Notes: generated from the sequence alone by a model not told the origin. A DNA stretch of 27,629 nt from Desulfobacterales bacterium (GCA_007127175.1 SKZX01000203.1:1-27629), one strand, 5' to 3'. Counted from the first letter of the stretch, positions 1,830 to 7,532 are shown. A program made the numbers and translations.

Positions 1830-2162
1830 TCAAGAAATGATGGAAAGCCGCTCAAAAATGGCGTCCACCGAGTCGATCAACCAGTTTCTTTGCTCAATGC
1901 CGGCATTGGCGATGCATTCGCAGCGGATCCGGTTGTCGGTGCGTACCAGCAGTTCGCAGCAGAGTGCGTCCAGCTTCAATTCAAGGGCAAAATAAAAGGG
2001 ATGGCAGTCCGCATGGGATTTCTGGGCCTGTGAATAAAGCGCCGGTTCCAGCGGTATCCGGTAGACGCCGCCCAGCCTGGCCGGGCCGTAATGCGCATCC
2101 AGGTATTCTTTCAACACCTTGAAATCACCAGGTCTTATTTCATCGATCACGTATTGTTTCAT
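1830..2162 (-). CDS. Hypothetical protein, ~110 aa, with Cys/His clusters
   Basis: ORF fills the ogt-rnj gap co-directionally. Start is ATG 2162 (MKQYVIDEIRP) or 2180. Contains HADCHP, LCCELLVR and RCEC. No family recognised. Confidence 0.7.
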   Translation of the reverse strand: MKQYVIDEIRPGDFKVLKEYLDAHYGPARLGGVYRIPLEPALYSQAQKSHADCHPFYFALELKLDALCCELLVRTDNRIRCECIANAGIEQRNWLIDSVDAIFERLSIIS

Positions 2163-2206
2163 AATCTGATAAAATACCATAACGCGCGGGATTACGCAAG
2201 AAATGG

Positions 2207-2725
2207 TTATACTGCGCAGCCTTCAAATGCCAACAGCTTTTTCTTCATACCCAGACCGCTGCCGAACCCGCCGAGACCGCCGTCCTTGCGAATGACCCGG
2301 TGACAGGGAATAATGATGGGAAAGGGGTTCTTTGCGAGGGCGTTCCCGACGAAACGGGACGCCCCCGGTCGCCCTATGGCTTTGGCGACAGCGCTGTAGG
2401 CGGCGGTCTCGCCAAAAGCGATTGCTGCGGTTTTATCGTATACCAGGCGCTCAAGGGAAGAAAAACCGTCAATCTGCAACAGCGTCCACGGTGGATGGAC
2501 AGGACGACGGTCAAAATAAGCGCTGAAAAAGCGGTCAATGCGTTTAACCGCTTCTGTTTCAGGCGGGCGGGGAGCCACATCCGGGATTGGGACAATGTTT
2601 CCGCCGTCTTTCCCTGGAAGGATCACGCGGGTCAAAACGAACGGATCAGGCGCGTACGTCACGGAAATAACGCCGACAGGCGAATTGAACGAATAAACAA
2701 AGGCGTCAAAAATGGTGTTTTCCAT
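2207..2725 (-). CDS. ogt: Methylated-DNA--protein-cysteine methyltransferase
   Basis: IPCHRV active-site motif; AFGETAAYSAVAKAIGRPGASRFVGNALAKNP HTH region; GGLGGFGSGLGMKKKLLAFEG C-terminus. Confidence 0.93.
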   Translation of the reverse strand: MENTIFDAFVYSFNSPVGVISVTYAPDPFVLTRVILPGKDGGNIVPIPDVAPRPPETEAVKRIDRFFSAYFDRRPVHPPWTLLQIDGFSSLERLVYDKTAAIAFGETAAYSAVAKAIGRPGASRFVGNALAKNPFPIIIPCHRVIRKDGGLGGFGSGLGMKKKLLAFEGCAV

Positions 2726-2790
2726 AAGGCCATGCCGGCGGTGATAAGCGTTTCAGGCGGGAGAAGCGTACAGGCCGCACAATCGGGCCC

Positions 2791-2826
2791 AAAAAAAACA
2801 TCCCCGGCCCGATGACGGGCCGGGGA
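2791..2826 (-). terminator. Intrinsic terminator of the ferredoxin gene
   Basis: Perfect 10-bp stem TCCCCGGCCC (2801-2810) / GGGCCGGGGA (2817-2826) with a 6-nt loop. On the minus strand it is followed by TG and a T8 run, just after the ferredoxin stop. Confidence 0.85.
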
Positions 2827-2841
2827 AAAAACGGACTGAGT

Positions 2842-3030
2842 TTAGGTTTCCTCAACGGTTATCGCACCGGGCTCGCAAACCTCTATGCAGCTATCACATC
2901 CAAGGCATTCATCTGCATTGACCGGAACGGCTTTGCCGTCCTGAAGTTCAAAGACTTCTGTCGGGCACACATCCACACACTCTTCACAACCTTCACACTT
3001 TTCGGCATCTACCGTTGGAATAAAAGCCAT
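2842..3030 (-). CDS. 2[4Fe-4S] ferredoxin, 62 aa
   Basis: Two CxxCxxCxxxC motifs (CEGCEECVDVCP and CLGCDSCIEVCE); acidic; AAGGAG SD upstream. Confidence 0.95.
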   Translation of the reverse strand: MAFIPTVDAEKCEGCEECVDVCPTEVFELQDGKAVPVNADECLGCDSCIEVCEPGAITVEET

Positions 3031-3043
3031 CTTGCATCTCCTT

Positions 3044-3078
3044 TTAATTGATTTTTACAAATTAATTGATTTTTACAA
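3044..3078. repeat. Perfect 17-bp direct repeat (TTAATTGATTTTTACAA x2, 1-nt spacer)
   Basis: Copies at 3044-3060 and 3062-3078, directly upstream of the ferredoxin SD. Confidence 0.9.
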
Positions 3079-3122
3079 AGCAGGCCGTTGGTTAGTCTGT
3101 TCATGTTTACCAAGATTTCTGC

Positions 3123-3149
3123 CATATACCAAATAAACAGCTAAGTCAA
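3123..3149 (-). promoter_or_regulatory. Possible sigma70 promoter for the ferredoxin gene
   Basis: The minus strand reads TTGACT-N15-TATATG with a TGn extended -10. The spacer is short, so the call is tentative. Confidence 0.3.
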
Positions 3150-3232
3150 GGAAACATATACCACATTTGCTATTTTCCCTTCATGGCCGGAAAATCGAGT
3201 ATCAATTCCTTTGGCTGCCGGTTTTCTGCCGG

Positions 3233-3401
3233 CTAAGTGGTCGAGGGCATAAATACAGTGACGCACCGAGATGGTCGAGGCGCCCGTCCCGCAAGGCGCG
3301 AGAAGCGAGAATAACGGGCGTATTTGAGCGCCGAGCAGCGCCGCCGGGACGGGATGCATCGACCATCGAATGCCGCTGTATTTATGTCCTCGACCACTAA
3401 G
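3233..3401. mobile_element. MITE-like nested-palindrome element (159 bp) flanked by a CTAAG direct repeat
   Basis: 21-bp terminal inverted repeats (3238-3258 and 3376-3396, 20/21 match); inner inverted repeat (3270-3291 and 3345-3367); CTAAG at 3233-3237 and 3397-3401. Confidence 0.65.
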
Positions 3402-4374
3402 CACCGGCCCTGGCGATCAGGCAGAAAAAAGCATGCCTGGACCCGCCCTTTACGGCCTCTTCCCGAAAGGGTGCATCCGTCAATGATTCAATCACTTTGG
3501 CAGGAGAACAATCCGGAATGGCGAACACCTCGAGCATATAGCCGTCATCGGCCAAACGATCAAGATATGAAAACACCCGGGCGGCTTCACCGGTGCCCTG
3601 CCACGGACTGCCGGCAACCGGCGGCAGTCCGGTTGAAAGCGCATCGGCCGCCAAAACCGGTTCGCAGGTCTTGTCCGTCTGCAGCAGGCGGACAAGGGCC
3701 GGCAAGCGTTCGGTCAACGCATCCATGACAGCACGGCTGTCGGTAACAAACAAATCCGGCGGCGACGTATCGTTTCTGGCGAGCAGCGCCCAGGCGGCAA
3801 TGCGCGACTCCGTCATGACGGCGCATGGATCATCGGATGCGGCAGGGTCACCGGAACCAAAGCTTTCCTCAGTATTCAGCCCCTCCCCCCTGAGCTGTTC
3901 AAACAGCTCTTTTGATGCGCTTTCCGCATTTTCAAGGCTCAGCCGGATTTCCCATTCATTGAGGTCGAACTCCTGGGCCAGCTGCAGAAACATCCTTGCA
4001 TTGATCATGGGATCGGCCTTCAGGCCGGCTTCAGGCTCAACGCCGTTTTTCCGTTTCAACACCTCTGTTCTGATCTCAGCGGCGAAGTCCTGGTTGTAAA
4101 ACCCGGAGCCCGCCAACTGGCTGAGCCTGAGGGCGTCTTTCTGGTGAATACGCCCCCAGCGGTCATATGCCCGGCACAATTCCAGAAGATACGTCTCGTT
4201 GCCGATGACCGGGTGCCTGAGCTCAATCGCAGCGGTTTCACCGAGGTGGGCCAGCATGCGGGGTGCCTGATCCATTATCGGCTGATACAGGGCAAAGCGC
4301 CCAAGGCGGCGGTTGACAGCCAATACTGTCCGCTGCGTGACAAATGTGGCCGGGAAAAAAAATTTTTTAATCAT
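3397..4374 (-). CDS. Hypothetical protein, 325 aa
   Basis: Long ORF whose ATG overlaps the TGA of the upstream fusion gene (ATGA, 4371-4374). No recognisable domain. Confidence 0.8.
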   Translation of the reverse strand: MIKKFFFPATFVTQRTVLAVNRRLGRFALYQPIMDQAPRMLAHLGETAAIELRHPVIGNETYLLELCRAYDRWGRIHQKDALRLSQLAGSGFYNQDFAAEIRTEVLKRKNGVEPEAGLKADPMINARMFLQLAQEFDLNEWEIRLSLENAESASKELFEQLRGEGLNTEESFGSGDPAASDDPCAVMTESRIAAWALLARNDTSPPDLFVTDSRAVMDALTERLPALVRLLQTDKTCEPVLAADALSTGLPPVAGSPWQGTGEAARVFSYLDRLADDGYMLEVFAIPDCSPAKVIESLTDAPFREEAVKGGSRHAFFCLIARAGA

Positions 4375-6662
4375 TTGTGGTTACTTACCTTTTCAGTGTC
4401 TTGAACGTTGATACCCATCTTCAGCAGCTGTTCGCGGATGCTGTCCGCCCGCTGAAAATCACGCGCTTTTCTCGCGGCATCGCGTTCTTCAATGAGTTTT
4501 TTCGCTTCCAGGGAATAAGACGCCTGCTGAAAGTCGAATATCGCGAGGACCGAATCGATGCCCAGGATGGTTTTACTTATTTTTTCGGCATCCGCTTTGC
4601 CGATCCGGTTCTCGTCAATCAGGCGGTTGATGCGCTTGATCATATCGAAAAGGGCGGCAATGGCGCGCGGCATGTTCAGGTCGTCATCCATTGCCGACAC
4701 AAAGCCCTGCCTCAGGTCATAGAGCAACTGATCGATTTCCGGGTAGCCCTGGTCCCCCGCGACCTGACCGAGGCTCTTCACAAAAGCGTCAAGCCGTTTA
4801 AGGGTGCTTTTTGACTGCCGAAGCCGATCCACTGAAAAACTGACCGGTTTACGGTAATGGGCCACAACCAGCCAGTAACGGATTTCGCGGGGATCATATC
4901 CTTTTTCCATCAGGGTTTCAAGGGTCGGCAGCGCATTTGCCACCGTTTCTCCTTCTTCTTCCCCCAAAACACGCTCGCAATGAACCCAGCAGCGGGCAAG
5001 GGGCTTGCCGGTAACGGCACGGGCAATGGCGCGCTCGTTTTCATGGTGCGGAAAAACGAGTTCACGGCTGCTGGCATGGATATCAAACGTTTCCCCCAGG
5101 TATTTCATCGCCATTGCAGCACACTGGATATGCCAGGACGGCCGGACATTGCCCCATGGGGTCTTGACGTAAAAGCCCCGTTTCAGCTCGGCAAGGCGTG
5201 CACGCTTCAGCAGGGTAAAATCCCTTGGGTTGTTCTTTTCGTATTCATCCAGGTCCACCGTGGCACCGAGCCTGATTTTATCGAGATCGATGCCGGAGAG
5301 CTGACCGTAATCCTCAAAGGCGCTGATATTGAAATACAGGGATCGCAATTTTTCATAGGCATATCCCTTTTCATAGAGTTTCCGGGCGATGTCCACCATG
5401 TCGTCCACATGTTCGCCGGCACGCGGGTAATGGTCGGCCGGCCGGATATTCAATGCAGCCATATCGGATTTGAAAAAGTCGATGTATTGGTTTGTGAACG
5501 CCTCAAGGGATGTGCCGGCCGCCTCGGATGCCGCTATGGTCTTGTCGTCGATATCGGTGATGTTCATGGCATGGTTCACACGGATGCCCCGGTATTCGAG
5601 GTACCGGCACAGAAGGTCGGAAAAGACGAACCGCCTGCACTCCCCCAGGTTGATGCGCCTGTAGACAGTGGGCCCGCAGGTGTAGACCGTTGCGCTGCCG
5701 TCTCTCAACGGCTCAAAAGGGACCTTTGAGCGGCTCAAGGCGTTGTAAAGGTGTATGTCGGCCTTCTTCTTTTCAGCAAACAGCGTCGTGCTCAAGTATC
5801 TTTCGCCGCTGTCACAAAAGATCACCACGATGGTGCCTTTCTCCATCTTTTCGGCCTCCCTCGCGGCGATCAGCATGGCCGCCCCGCTGCTCATCCCCAC
5901 GAACAGCCCTTCTTCCCGGCTCAGGCGCCGGGTCATCTCAAACGCCTCTTCATCATCGACGTTTATCTTTTCATCCAGGAGGCTTTTGTCATAGAGCTCC
6001 GGCCGGTATGCCTCCTTCATGTTCTTGAGCCCCTGGAGCTTGTGCCCGAGATAGGGCTCCACACCGACGACACGGATTGCCCGGTCATATTCCCGGAACC
6101 GCCGGGAACATCCCATGAGCGTGCCGGTGGTTCCCATGGTGGCCACGAAGGTGTCGATATTGCCGCCAGTCTGCTCGATGATTTCCCTTGCGGTGGTGTT
6201 GTAATGGGCCATCCAGTTTGCGGGGTTGTTGTACTGGTCGGTCATGAAATAGCGGTCAGGAGACTCCCTTACAAGGTTGTAGACCTCCTCGATGGCCCCG
6301 TCGGTCCCCAGATGACCGGGCGTCAGCATGATCTCCGCGCCCCTGGCCGCGAGTATCTTGCGGCGCTCCATGGAAACCGCCTCGGACATGGCCAGAAGCA
6401 GGCGATAGCCCTTTATGCTGCATATCATTGCCAGCCCGATGCCTGTATTCCCGGATGTGGCCTCGATCACGGTTTTTCCCGGGGTCAGCTGCCCGGACTG
6501 CTCGCCGGCTTCGATCATGGCCAATGCCGGGCGGTCTTTTACGGACCCGCCGGGATTGAGATATTCAATCTTGGCGAATATTTTTACGTTCGGGTTCGGG
6601 TTCAGCCGCCTGATTTCCACAAGCGGCGTATTGCCGATGGCGTCCAGTATGGAATGGGTCAT
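4371..6662 (-). CDS. Cysteine synthase (PLP, CysM-like)::cysteinyl-tRNA-synthetase-like fusion, 763 aa
   Basis: N-half (~5775-6662): IGNTPLV, NPGGSVKDR (PLP Lys), EATSGNTGIG, GTTGT. C-half (~4374-5756): CGPTVY, NITDIDDK, WHIQC, FPHHENE, DALR-like helices and an RADSIREQL anticodon domain. The likely start is ATG 6662 (MTHSILDAIG); the ORF-track start at 6734 lies inside the repeat element. Confidence 0.93.
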   Translation of the reverse strand: MTHSILDAIGNTPLVEIRRLNPNPNVKIFAKIEYLNPGGSVKDRPALAMIEAGEQSGQLTPGKTVIEATSGNTGIGLAMICSIKGYRLLLAMSEAVSMERRKILAARGAEIMLTPGHLGTDGAIEEVYNLVRESPDRYFMTDQYNNPANWMAHYNTTAREIIEQTGGNIDTFVATMGTTGTLMGCSRRFREYDRAIRVVGVEPYLGHKLQGLKNMKEAYRPELYDKSLLDEKINVDDEEAFEMTRRLSREEGLFVGMSSGAAMLIAAREAEKMEKGTIVVIFCDSGERYLSTTLFAEKKKADIHLYNALSRSKVPFEPLRDGSATVYTCGPTVYRRINLGECRRFVFSDLLCRYLEYRGIRVNHAMNITDIDDKTIAASEAAGTSLEAFTNQYIDFFKSDMAALNIRPADHYPRAGEHVDDMVDIARKLYEKGYAYEKLRSLYFNISAFEDYGQLSGIDLDKIRLGATVDLDEYEKNNPRDFTLLKRARLAELKRGFYVKTPWGNVRPSWHIQCAAMAMKYLGETFDIHASSRELVFPHHENERAIARAVTGKPLARCWVHCERVLGEEEGETVANALPTLETLMEKGYDPREIRYWLVVAHYRKPVSFSVDRLRQSKSTLKRLDAFVKSLGQVAGDQGYPEIDQLLYDLRQGFVSAMDDDLNMPRAIAALFDMIKRINRLIDENRIGKADAEKISKTILGIDSVLAIFDFQQASYSLEAKKLIEERDAARKARDFQRADSIREQLLKMGINVQDTEKVSNHK

Positions 6663-6694
6663 TGTATGCCCCGCTTTTATGAACGGTAATAGTT

Positions 6695-6818
6695 GACGAC
6701 TTCGAGAAAATCTCAACATCTGCGTTATGCGCAATTCCTCAGAATTTTATGTACGCTAAGTACCCTGCATTCTTCGAAATTGCGCAAGCCTTGATCTTAG
6801 ACTGTTTATAAAGTCGTC
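6695..6818 (-). repeat. ~125-bp palindromic REP/MITE-like element, copy 1
   Basis: GACGACTT...AAGTCGTC termini and internal TGCGCAATT/AATTGCGCA arms. Its reverse complement shares a perfect 34-bp block (6765-6798) with 11042-11075. Confidence 0.85.
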
Positions 6819-6884
6819 TGATCGCGTTTTTTACGGATTCATCCATGGTTAATAAAAAAATATGCAAACCTGCCGGTTTACGCT

Positions 6885-7532
6885 TCAAGGCATACGTTTT
6901 TCGCCTGAAATCGCTTTCAACTGTTCCAGCAAGGCCGCCTTCACATCCCCAGGGGATGCAGAAGCGTCAATGATGCGTATCCGCTCCGGCTCCGCTTCAG
7001 CCAGCGCCAGGTAGCCCTGCCTGACCTTTTCATGAAACACGATCTTCTCCCGCTCGAACCGGCTCTGGGACGTATCCCGGGCGCCCGCATCGATGGCCCG
7101 CCAGGCACGGGACAAACCGATCTCAGATGGCAGATCGAGCAAAAACGTGATATCCGGCCATATGCCCTTCAGCACCAGCCGGTTGATTGACGTAACCGTA
7201 TCGGGGCCGATTCCCCTGGCCGCCCCCTGGTACGCGATGGTCGAATCCAGAAACCGGTCGCATATGACAATGTTCCCCTTGTCAAGCGCCGGCTTGATGA
7301 TTTCGCTGACGTGCTGTGCGCGGTCGGCGGTATACAAGAGCAGTTCAGCCATGGCGTCAAGCATGTCATGGTCACGGTCCAGAAGGATGCGTCGAATCTT
7401 TTCACCGATTTTCGTCCCCCCGGGCTCCCGGGTCACAACGCATTCATACCCTTTTTGATGAAAATAAGCTGCTATATGCGCAATCTGGGTGCTTTTGCCC
7501 GACCCTTCGATCCCCTCCATGGTTATCAGCAT
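6885..7532 (-). CDS. tmk: Thymidylate kinase, 215 aa
   Basis: MLITMEGIEGSGKSTQ P-loop, TREPGGT, ELLLYTADRAQH, CDRFLDST, PDITFLLD. Start moved to ATG 7532, 8 nt after the upstream stop. Confidence 0.95.
   Translation of the reverse strand: MLITMEGIEGSGKSTQIAHIAAYFHQKGYECVVTREPGGTKIGEKIRRILLDRDHDMLDAMAELLLYTADRAQHVSEIIKPALDKGNIVICDRFLDSTIAYQGAARGIGPDTVTSINRLVLKGIWPDITFLLDLPSEIGLSRAWRAIDAGARDTSQSRFEREKIVFHEKVRQGYLALAEAEPERIRIIDASASPGDVKAALLEQLKAISGEKRMP

Follow-up and report, generated by a model that had tools for sequence, protein, structure and literature searches.

A CysM-type cysteine synthase fused to a degenerate cysteinyl-tRNA synthetase body in Desulfobacterales: a candidate synthase with a built-in sensor

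In the window analysed here, a stretch of 27,629 nucleotides from a Desulfobacterales bacterium (GCA_007127175.1 SKZX01000203.1:1-27629), one open reading frame (ORF) joins a pyridoxal phosphate (PLP)-dependent cysteine synthase of the CysM type to a body of the cysteinyl-tRNA synthetase (CysRS) type. The N-terminal half looks like a working enzyme. The C-terminal half is a full-length CysRS body that cannot plausibly form cysteinyl adenylate (Cys-AMP), having lost both ATP signature motifs. Judged from the sequence and from known systems, we give an even chance to the reading that the protein is a CysM-type synthase, independent of serine acetyltransferase, with a built-in pseudo-synthetase sensor that binds cysteine or tRNA-Cys.

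A single frame joining a synthase to a CysRS-like body

The ORF lies on the minus strand, with its ATG at 6662 and its stop codon at 4371-4373. The initial annotation had described a single ORF of 763 residues; the length and the single frame stand, and the strand is corrected to minus, from 6662 to 4371. A plus-strand reading of 4371-6662 was rejected, as there are many stops on that strand. The parts of the protein are as follows.

4371..6662, minus strand: whole fusion ORF, CysM domain plus CysRS-like body, 763 residues (uninterrupted frame; Pfam and NCBIfam matches; orthologues)
5778..6662, minus strand: CysM-type PLP sulfhydrylase domain, residues 1-295 (PALP PF00291 at 3e-74; nearest solved relatives are the CysM proteins of E. 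coli and Salmonella)
Landmarks of the synthase domain, by residue: Lys42; Asn loop TSGNTG, 69-74; GTTGT, 177-181; loop GHKLQGLKN, 206-214; SSG, 258-260
5757..5777, minus strand: linker AEKKKAD, residues 296-302 (fixed length in 80 orthologues; crossed by contigs of four runs)
4809..5756, minus strand: CysRS-like Rossmann/CP body, residues 303-618 (tRNA-synt_1e at 3e-80; alignments to 8QHP and 3TQO)
5640..5651, minus strand: HIGH-equivalent, NLGE, residues 338-341 (aligned to the HIGH of the canonical CysRS of the same genome)
4944..4958, minus strand: KMSKS-equivalent, EEGET, residues 569-573, in an unconserved acidic loop (alignment to the canonical CysRS of the same genome; orthologue comparison)
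4389..4703, minus strand: anticodon-binding region, DALR_2 plus CysS_C, residues 654-758 (PF09190 at 1.5e-12; PF23493 at 2.3e-6)

Pfam places PALP at residues 5-284, tRNA-synt_1e at 316-618, DALR_2 at 654-708 and CysS_C at 718-758. The protein scores above the NCBIfam cut-offs for both of its halves, with 366 bits against 344 for cysKM (TIGR01136) and 381 bits against 340 for cysS (TIGR00435). For the cysM equivalog TIGR01138 it reaches 356 bits, under the cut-off of 394, and is therefore a member of the CysK/M family and not an equivalog of the E. coli type. The linker of about seven residues noted at the outset is present. In the predicted structure, the domains are modeled with confidence (mean predicted local distance difference test score, pLDDT, 86), and pLDDT falls below 50 at residues 293-299, in the linker, and at 570-575, in the loop equivalent to KMSKS. 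The predicted template modeling score (pTM) is 0.63, and the inter-domain geometry is unreliable.

The fusion is genuine. A stop codon or an assembly chimera at the junction (~5757-5775) had been named as the finding that would undo it, and neither is seen in the contigs that bridge this region. These are X1 (3374-5952), X6 (5296-6780), X7 (5555-5814) and X5 (4879-5952). The DNA runs X1 (2012), X6 (2019) and X7 (2022) are independent soda- or salt-lake metagenomes, and X5 is from one metatranscriptome library. Across the four runs there are zero indels, joints or base differences at the junction itself, and the stretch is kept nearly letter for letter in all of them. The X5 match demonstrates presence in an RNA library, which is no proof of transcription. 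At least 80 genomes of named species carry the fusion in this single frame; one of them is the complete Desulfonema magnum chromosome. With four bridging runs and a frame common to more than 120 genomes, a chimera or hidden stop at the junction was rejected.

In the synthase domain, the Schiff-base Lys42, the Asn loop, the GTTGT phosphate loop and the SSG motif are invariant over 45 aligned fusions, down to 40% identity. All of the motifs quoted in the initial annotation (GGSVKDR with Lys42, TSGNTG, GTTGT and HKLQGLKNM) were found. Its description of the domain as CysM-like is borne out: the best match of the whole domain is E. coli CysM, and that of the loop at 196-240 is the O-phosphoserine sulfhydrylase CysM of M. 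tuberculosis (3DKI/3DWG). In the alignment with 3DKI/3DWG, the invariant Lys213 stands opposite their loop arginine, which we take to be the phosphate-binding Arg220. The fusion shares its PLP fold and catalytic residues with M. tuberculosis CysM and with E. coli CysM (2BHS). It differs from the M. tuberculosis enzyme in the lysine of the loop, in a CysRS-like extension of 460 residues and in the partner genes CysO and Mec+, a sulfur carrier and a JAMM protease, neither of which is among the neighbors of the fusion.

The CysRS-like body has kept the fold and lost the ATP motifs, which agrees with the earlier description of a dead CysRS: HIGH is replaced by NLGE, with both histidines lost, and KMSKS by EEGET. 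Among 80 orthologues, the first ATP site is mostly H-x-G-E and KMSKS is missing at the second. Nowhere in the domain is conservation lower than at these two sites. By contrast, Cys329, Cys514, His539 and Glu543, the four zinc ligands, are retained together with Trp510, and all five are conserved in the order; they are the counterparts of C28, C209, H234, E238 and Trp205 of E. coli CysRS. Conservation extends to the motifs of the CP domain and to the C-terminal motif of the anticodon domain. Within the latter, Arg727, Asp740, Gly750 and Asp755 are invariant in 45 of 45 aligned fusions, including the most degenerate. Cys342, directly after the HIGH-equivalent, is conserved in most orthologues and is elsewhere Ala, Ser, Gly, Trp, Tyr or Ile. 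The region of the KIIK motif reads DDKTIAAS, in which the first lysine alone is kept. Compared with canonical class I CysRS (E. coli 1LI5/1U0B; the closest solved structure is 8QHP), the body has the full fold, the zinc ligands, the tryptophan of the cysteine site, the CP motifs, DALR and the C-terminal domain. Unlike the canonical enzyme, it is without HIGH and KMSKS, falls outside the canonical clade and is accompanied by a true CysRS.

Distribution, paralogy and the cysteine pathway

A junction-spanning probe of 186 residues was run on 301 evenly sampled genomes of the phylum, and one frame of ~760-800 residues was found in 122 of them. Exact look-ups gave Desulfococcus multivorans (where it is annotated 'CysS1'), Thermodesulfobacterium sp. 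TA1, Ca. Desulfofervidus auxilii, Desulfacinum hydrothermale, Dissulfuribacter thermophilus and Desulfobulbus oralis (split in two) as carriers.

The fused body is an extra paralogue. The window's genome has a separate canonical cysS on contig C423, with 589 bits and an intact HIGH, and a distinct cysS that scores higher than the fusion is likewise present in each of the ten further carrier genomes tested, all of them complete or nearly so. In a maximum-likelihood tree, canonical CysRS forms one clade (99/97 support), and the fusion CysRS domains of Desulfobacterota fall outside it with a few stand-alone relatives. In pairwise comparisons among ten genomes that encode both proteins, the synthase domains are on average 62% identical, the fused CysRS-like domains 44% and the housekeeping CysRS enzymes 51%. 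The fused domain is under purifying selection and is no decaying relic, and it diverges slightly faster than the housekeeping CysRS. We noted that the stand-alone CysRS of Desulfococcus multivorans (L101, G264) is itself unusually divergent, with 432 bits, HIGN, KMAKS, the longest branch in the canonical clade and ~40% identity to the canonical CysRS of its relatives.

The family is not uniform. The motif survey, which left out rows G017fus, G041fus and G208can, showed a range of states: H-L-G-x with KMSRS in G106, G039 and P0124, the Desulfobacterales state given above, and members in which zinc ligands are gone too. One of the stand-alone relatives in the tree is a split form on a Joint Genome Institute (JGI) metagenome contig (P0138, L140:251-2588), where a PALP gene of 308 residues is followed after 4 nt by a CysRS-like gene of 468 residues with H-I-G-L and KMSRS; the latter belongs to the fusion clade. 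A 768-residue CysM-CysRS fusion with HIGN and KMSKS (P0125, L137:4001-6307, GCA_048628415.1) is an independent fusion event, because its CysRS half lies inside the canonical clade. With its intact motifs and its place in the tree, it may be a truly bifunctional enzyme. That CysM is found paired with a CysRS body in several forms, newly arisen or retained, speaks for a functional connection between the two.

Two further members have unusual frames. In the RefSeq chromosome of Desulfobulbus oralis (L127), the orthologue is given as a 'cysteine synthase' of 602 residues and a 'DALR domain-containing protein' of 191 residues. It is one protein of 828 residues in close metagenomic relatives, which points to a frameshift in that genome or to an error in its sequencing. 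The G170 fusion (L129:5884-9948) has an open frame of 1354 residues with PALP from residue 572. The first 570 residues match no Pfam domain and could be either a genuine extension of the N-terminus or simply a long open frame upstream.

For the cysteine pathway, serine acetyltransferase was scored as TIGR01172 at E≤1e-20 and the CysK/M family at E≤1e-50 in the 301 sampled genomes. The cross-tabulation, to be read descriptively, gave 60 genomes with both the fusion and the acetyltransferase, 62 with the fusion alone, 140 with the acetyltransferase alone and 39 with neither. The fusion is the sole CysK/M match in 57 of the 62 carriers that lack the acetyltransferase, and a second CysK/M is found in 57 of the 60 that have it. 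Four complete genomes directly show the fusion as the lone CysK/M without an acetyltransferase. The pattern is clean and, at this descriptive level, presents the cysE-cysK pair as an optional add-on and the fusion as able to stand alone. As the fusion is the only CysK/M in most carriers without cysE, the fused synthase would need no O-acetylserine. O-phosphoserine would be the obvious alternative substrate and fits the mycobacterial-type loop.

In the window's genome the situation is mixed. The initial annotation had noted that no serine acetyltransferase gene is nearby, which holds for the window and fails for the genome: on contig C407 (2863-4386), a canonical cysK adjoins a cysE-like gene of 335 residues. 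The latter scores 164 bits, under the TIGR01172 cut-off of 211. This long, low-scoring type of cysE-like gene is the usual serine acetyltransferase candidate across the phylum.

Proposed function and its alternatives

We infer the substrate, the ligand binding and the allosteric coupling of the fusion from sequence. The PLP domain probably makes cysteine from O-phosphoserine and sulfide, and it would do so without serine acetyltransferase. The retired CysRS module would form no Cys-AMP, but it keeps its zinc/thiolate cysteine pocket and its anticodon-binding domain for tRNA-Cys. By binding free cysteine, tRNA-Cys or both, the module would tune the activity of the adjacent PLP domain to the demand for cysteine. 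A sensor on the synthase would then stand in for the feedback that normally acts on serine acetyltransferase. It would make physiological sense, since bypassing serine acetyltransferase bypasses the usual feedback point. Among the functions listed in the initial annotation, tuning to cysteine or tRNA-Cys appears the best fit, with the pocket and the anticodon domain under purifying selection and the ATP motifs gone.

Several observations weigh against this proposal. The zinc ligands are lost as well in some lineages (G112, G208, P0127, P0132 and P0133), and cysteine sensing is therefore not a universal role of the module. If there is a single universal ligand, tRNA-Cys is the more likely candidate, because the zinc ligands are lost in some lineages and the anticodon-domain motif in none. 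The phosphate-binding position of the synthase carries Lys, not Arg, and O-phosphoserine use is only hinted at by the loop. With its low-confidence linker, the model leaves the orientation of the two domains unfixed. Related genomes are non-independent samples, which confines the co-occurrence counts to description. Owing to the cysE-cysK pair, the fusion is not the only cysteine route of the window's genome, and the independence of this particular protein from serine acetyltransferase would follow from its relatives.

The nearest apparent precedent for a synthase with a pseudo-synthetase regulator is found in histidine biosynthesis. HisZ is an inactive paralogue of HisRS that activates HisG and mediates inhibition by histidine (PMC9734150). 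There, a synthetase paralogue without aminoacylation is physically joined to the cognate biosynthetic enzyme, and the regulatory or feedback module resides in HisZ (PMC9734150). The fusion, the split operon form and the loss of motifs in our case would be the counterparts of these properties. The two systems differ in that HisZ, a paralogue of class II HisRS, is a subunit of its own without an anticodon-binding function, whereas the module described here is a class I CysRS body which shares one chain with the synthase (two chains in a few relatives) and has kept its anticodon domain, and whose regulatory role is proposed.

For the sensing of tRNA, the nearest precedent appears to be GCN2. In its HisRS-like domain, a pseudo-synthetase is fused to an effector, binds uncharged tRNA and reports amino-acid shortage. 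GCN2 differs in being eukaryotic, with a kinase as the effector and many tRNAs as ligands; here the effector is a biosynthetic enzyme and the module is specific to the CysRS family. A more tentative reading along these lines, possible but short of probable, makes tRNA-Cys central. Uncharged tRNA-Cys would switch on the synthase in the manner of GCN2, or the synthase would be tRNA-templated, with the PLP domain acting on a residue esterified to a tRNA-Cys that the dead synthetase holds.

In place of sensing, the CysRS body may be a passive scaffold or tether. It would stabilize or oligomerize the synthase, or hold it near tRNA-Cys and the translation apparatus; as a tether, it would let cysteine be made where the real CysRS uses it. 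The short linker of fixed length and the adjacency of the two genes in the split form are compatible with this, as is the dispensability of the zinc ligands in several lineages in which the fold and the anticodon-domain motif persist. However, the four zinc ligands and Trp510 are kept over most of the family, which is unexpected for a pure scaffold, and the domain evolves nearly as slowly as an essential synthetase. We regard this alternative as unlikely, though it deserves to be kept in view.

A role in tRNA-dependent chemistry is improbable. The body would clamp an aminoacyl-tRNA-Cys, for example phosphoseryl- or seryl-tRNA-Cys, and the PLP domain would play the part of SepCysS with a type II fold, by turning the bound residue into cysteine or by modifying Cys-tRNA-Cys. 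The retained anticodon domain and acceptor-side core motifs speak for such a role, as do the resemblance of the PLP domain to an O-phosphoserine sulfhydrylase and the short linker, which puts both sites on one polypeptide. In the SepRS/SepCysS system, too, a PLP enzyme and a tRNA-Cys-binding protein cooperate, and cysteine is made from a phosphoserine precursor. However, SepCysS is of fold type I and needs SepRS, and neither was found in this 84%-complete genome, where the best matches reach just 19 and 27 bits, far under the cut-offs. The conversion of an O-activated Ser-tRNA-Cys, proposed in the initial annotation, thus lacks its supplier. A canonical CysRS is present in every carrier tested, and no conserved kinase or synthetase partner adjoins the fusion across the phylum. 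Deltaproteobacteria do have an unusual tRNA-Cys biology, which counts in favor of such chemistry: selC* tRNA-Cys and CysRS* form an extra CysRS system in Desulfobacterales (PMC5389517). CysRS* resembles the fusion module in being an extra CysRS paralogue in the same bacterial groups, but it is unfused, is without the anticodon-binding domain and is thought to charge a special tRNA (PMC5389517). In the fusion module it is the ATP motifs that are gone, and the anticodon domain is still there. The search of the window's incomplete genome found a single tRNA-Cys(GCA), of the ordinary kind with U73, and a normal tRNA-Sec with G73; a special tRNA-Cys of the selC* type was not found.

The handling of sulfur species is a still weaker candidate. 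The zinc-thiolate pocket would bind a sulfur donor, a persulfide or S-sulfocysteine, and the protein would make or pass on reactive sulfur without sensing cysteine. CysM enzymes accept larger sulfur nucleophiles, the habitats of the carriers are sulfidic, and Cys342 is conserved in most orthologues. Against this, Cys342 is replaced in some orthologues and no sulfur-carrier genes are nearby. Persulfide synthesis by CysRS is reported to depend on lysines of the KIIK and KMSKS motifs, and these are mostly gone: only the first KIIK lysine is left and KMSKS is absent, which speaks against the persulfide function considered in the initial annotation. We regard this explanation as very improbable.

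The least probable explanation is that the fusion is still bifunctional, its C-terminal half activating cysteine weakly or unconventionally and charging tRNA-Cys with fresh cysteine; the score above the cysS cut-off, the H-L-G-x and KMSRS of some members, the HIGN and KMSKS of the independent fusion and the precedent of certain class I ArgRS that work without a canonical KMSKS would allow it, but both HIGH histidines are replaced in the window's protein, its KMSKS loop is acidic, these two regions are the least conserved of the domain, and a canonical CysRS is always present too in the genomes tested. The related proposal that newly made cysteine is channeled into charging is unlikely on the same grounds, namely NLGE, the acidic loop and the separate canonical CysRS in this and ten other genomes.

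Neighboring genes and meaning of the fusion

The fusion is flanked by tmk, a yhaM-like gene for an HD/OB protein, a gene of 325 residues and an ogt-like gene. The order yhaM-like, tmk, fusion and 325-residue gene is kept through Desulfobacterales-type relatives. The last of these adjoins the fusion.

3397..4374, minus strand: companion gene, 325 residues, directly downstream, with an ATGA overlap with the fusion stop

It is translationally coupled to the fusion by this overlap and lies directly downstream in 70 of 80 orthologous loci, with the same 4-nt overlap in ~24. The protein has no Pfam match. Its model is confident (pLDDT 87) and resembles only uncharacterized clusters of the AlphaFold DB; no solved fold in the PDB was matched, and the protein atlas search was empty. 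Outside the order, the gene is beside the fusion in one other family only, where it is upstream. It is therefore a lineage-restricted companion, outside the core unit. No operon partner conserved across the phylum was found beside the fusion. A search for an upstream riboswitch or T-box leader was negative: Rfam gave nothing at the gathering score over the window, and positions 6600-6950 had no match even at E≤1.

The two-gene unit is bracketed by palindromic intergenic elements. In three of the four runs, the summed contig depth rises from ~10-20 to 2000-4700 at 6673-6823, and it is 65-300 at 3200-3350. Contigs break at 6673-6823 and 3200-3400, with many different flanks. Because of these depth jumps and breaks, the elements are taken as high-copy repeats in the community, probably of the repetitive extragenic palindromic (REP)-like kind.

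The initial annotation had supposed that relatives may already be annotated, and they are, as 'cysteine--tRNA ligase' or 'cysteine synthase'. The fusion is undescribed in the literature that we searched in full text, among it a review from 2022 on how prokaryotes encode cysteine and the CysRS* and selC* tRNA-Cys paper on Deltaproteobacteria. An inactive synthetase paralogue that controls its own amino acid is known for histidine, in HisZ, and a cysteine case, which the fusion may represent, was not found described in the searched literature. Nor did we find there a described case of such a module fused to a biosynthetic enzyme with the tRNA anticodon reader kept.

With the 'cysteine--tRNA ligase' label in hundreds of genomes, synthetases are overcounted and the real cysteine pathway is obscured when metabolism is reconstructed. 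If the tRNA-gated version is true, the fusion would be a one-polypeptide bacterial analogue of the GCN2 logic that acts directly on metabolism. If the tRNA-templated version is true, a tRNA-dependent way of making cysteine would have evolved a second time, independently. About half of the carriers, with Thermodesulfobacterium sp. TA1, Ca. Desulfofervidus auxilii and many Desulfobacterota among them, have no recognizable cysteine synthase other than the fusion and no serine acetyltransferase. The fusion therefore probably has a central part in the sulfur assimilation of major lineages of sulfate reducers and syntrophs.

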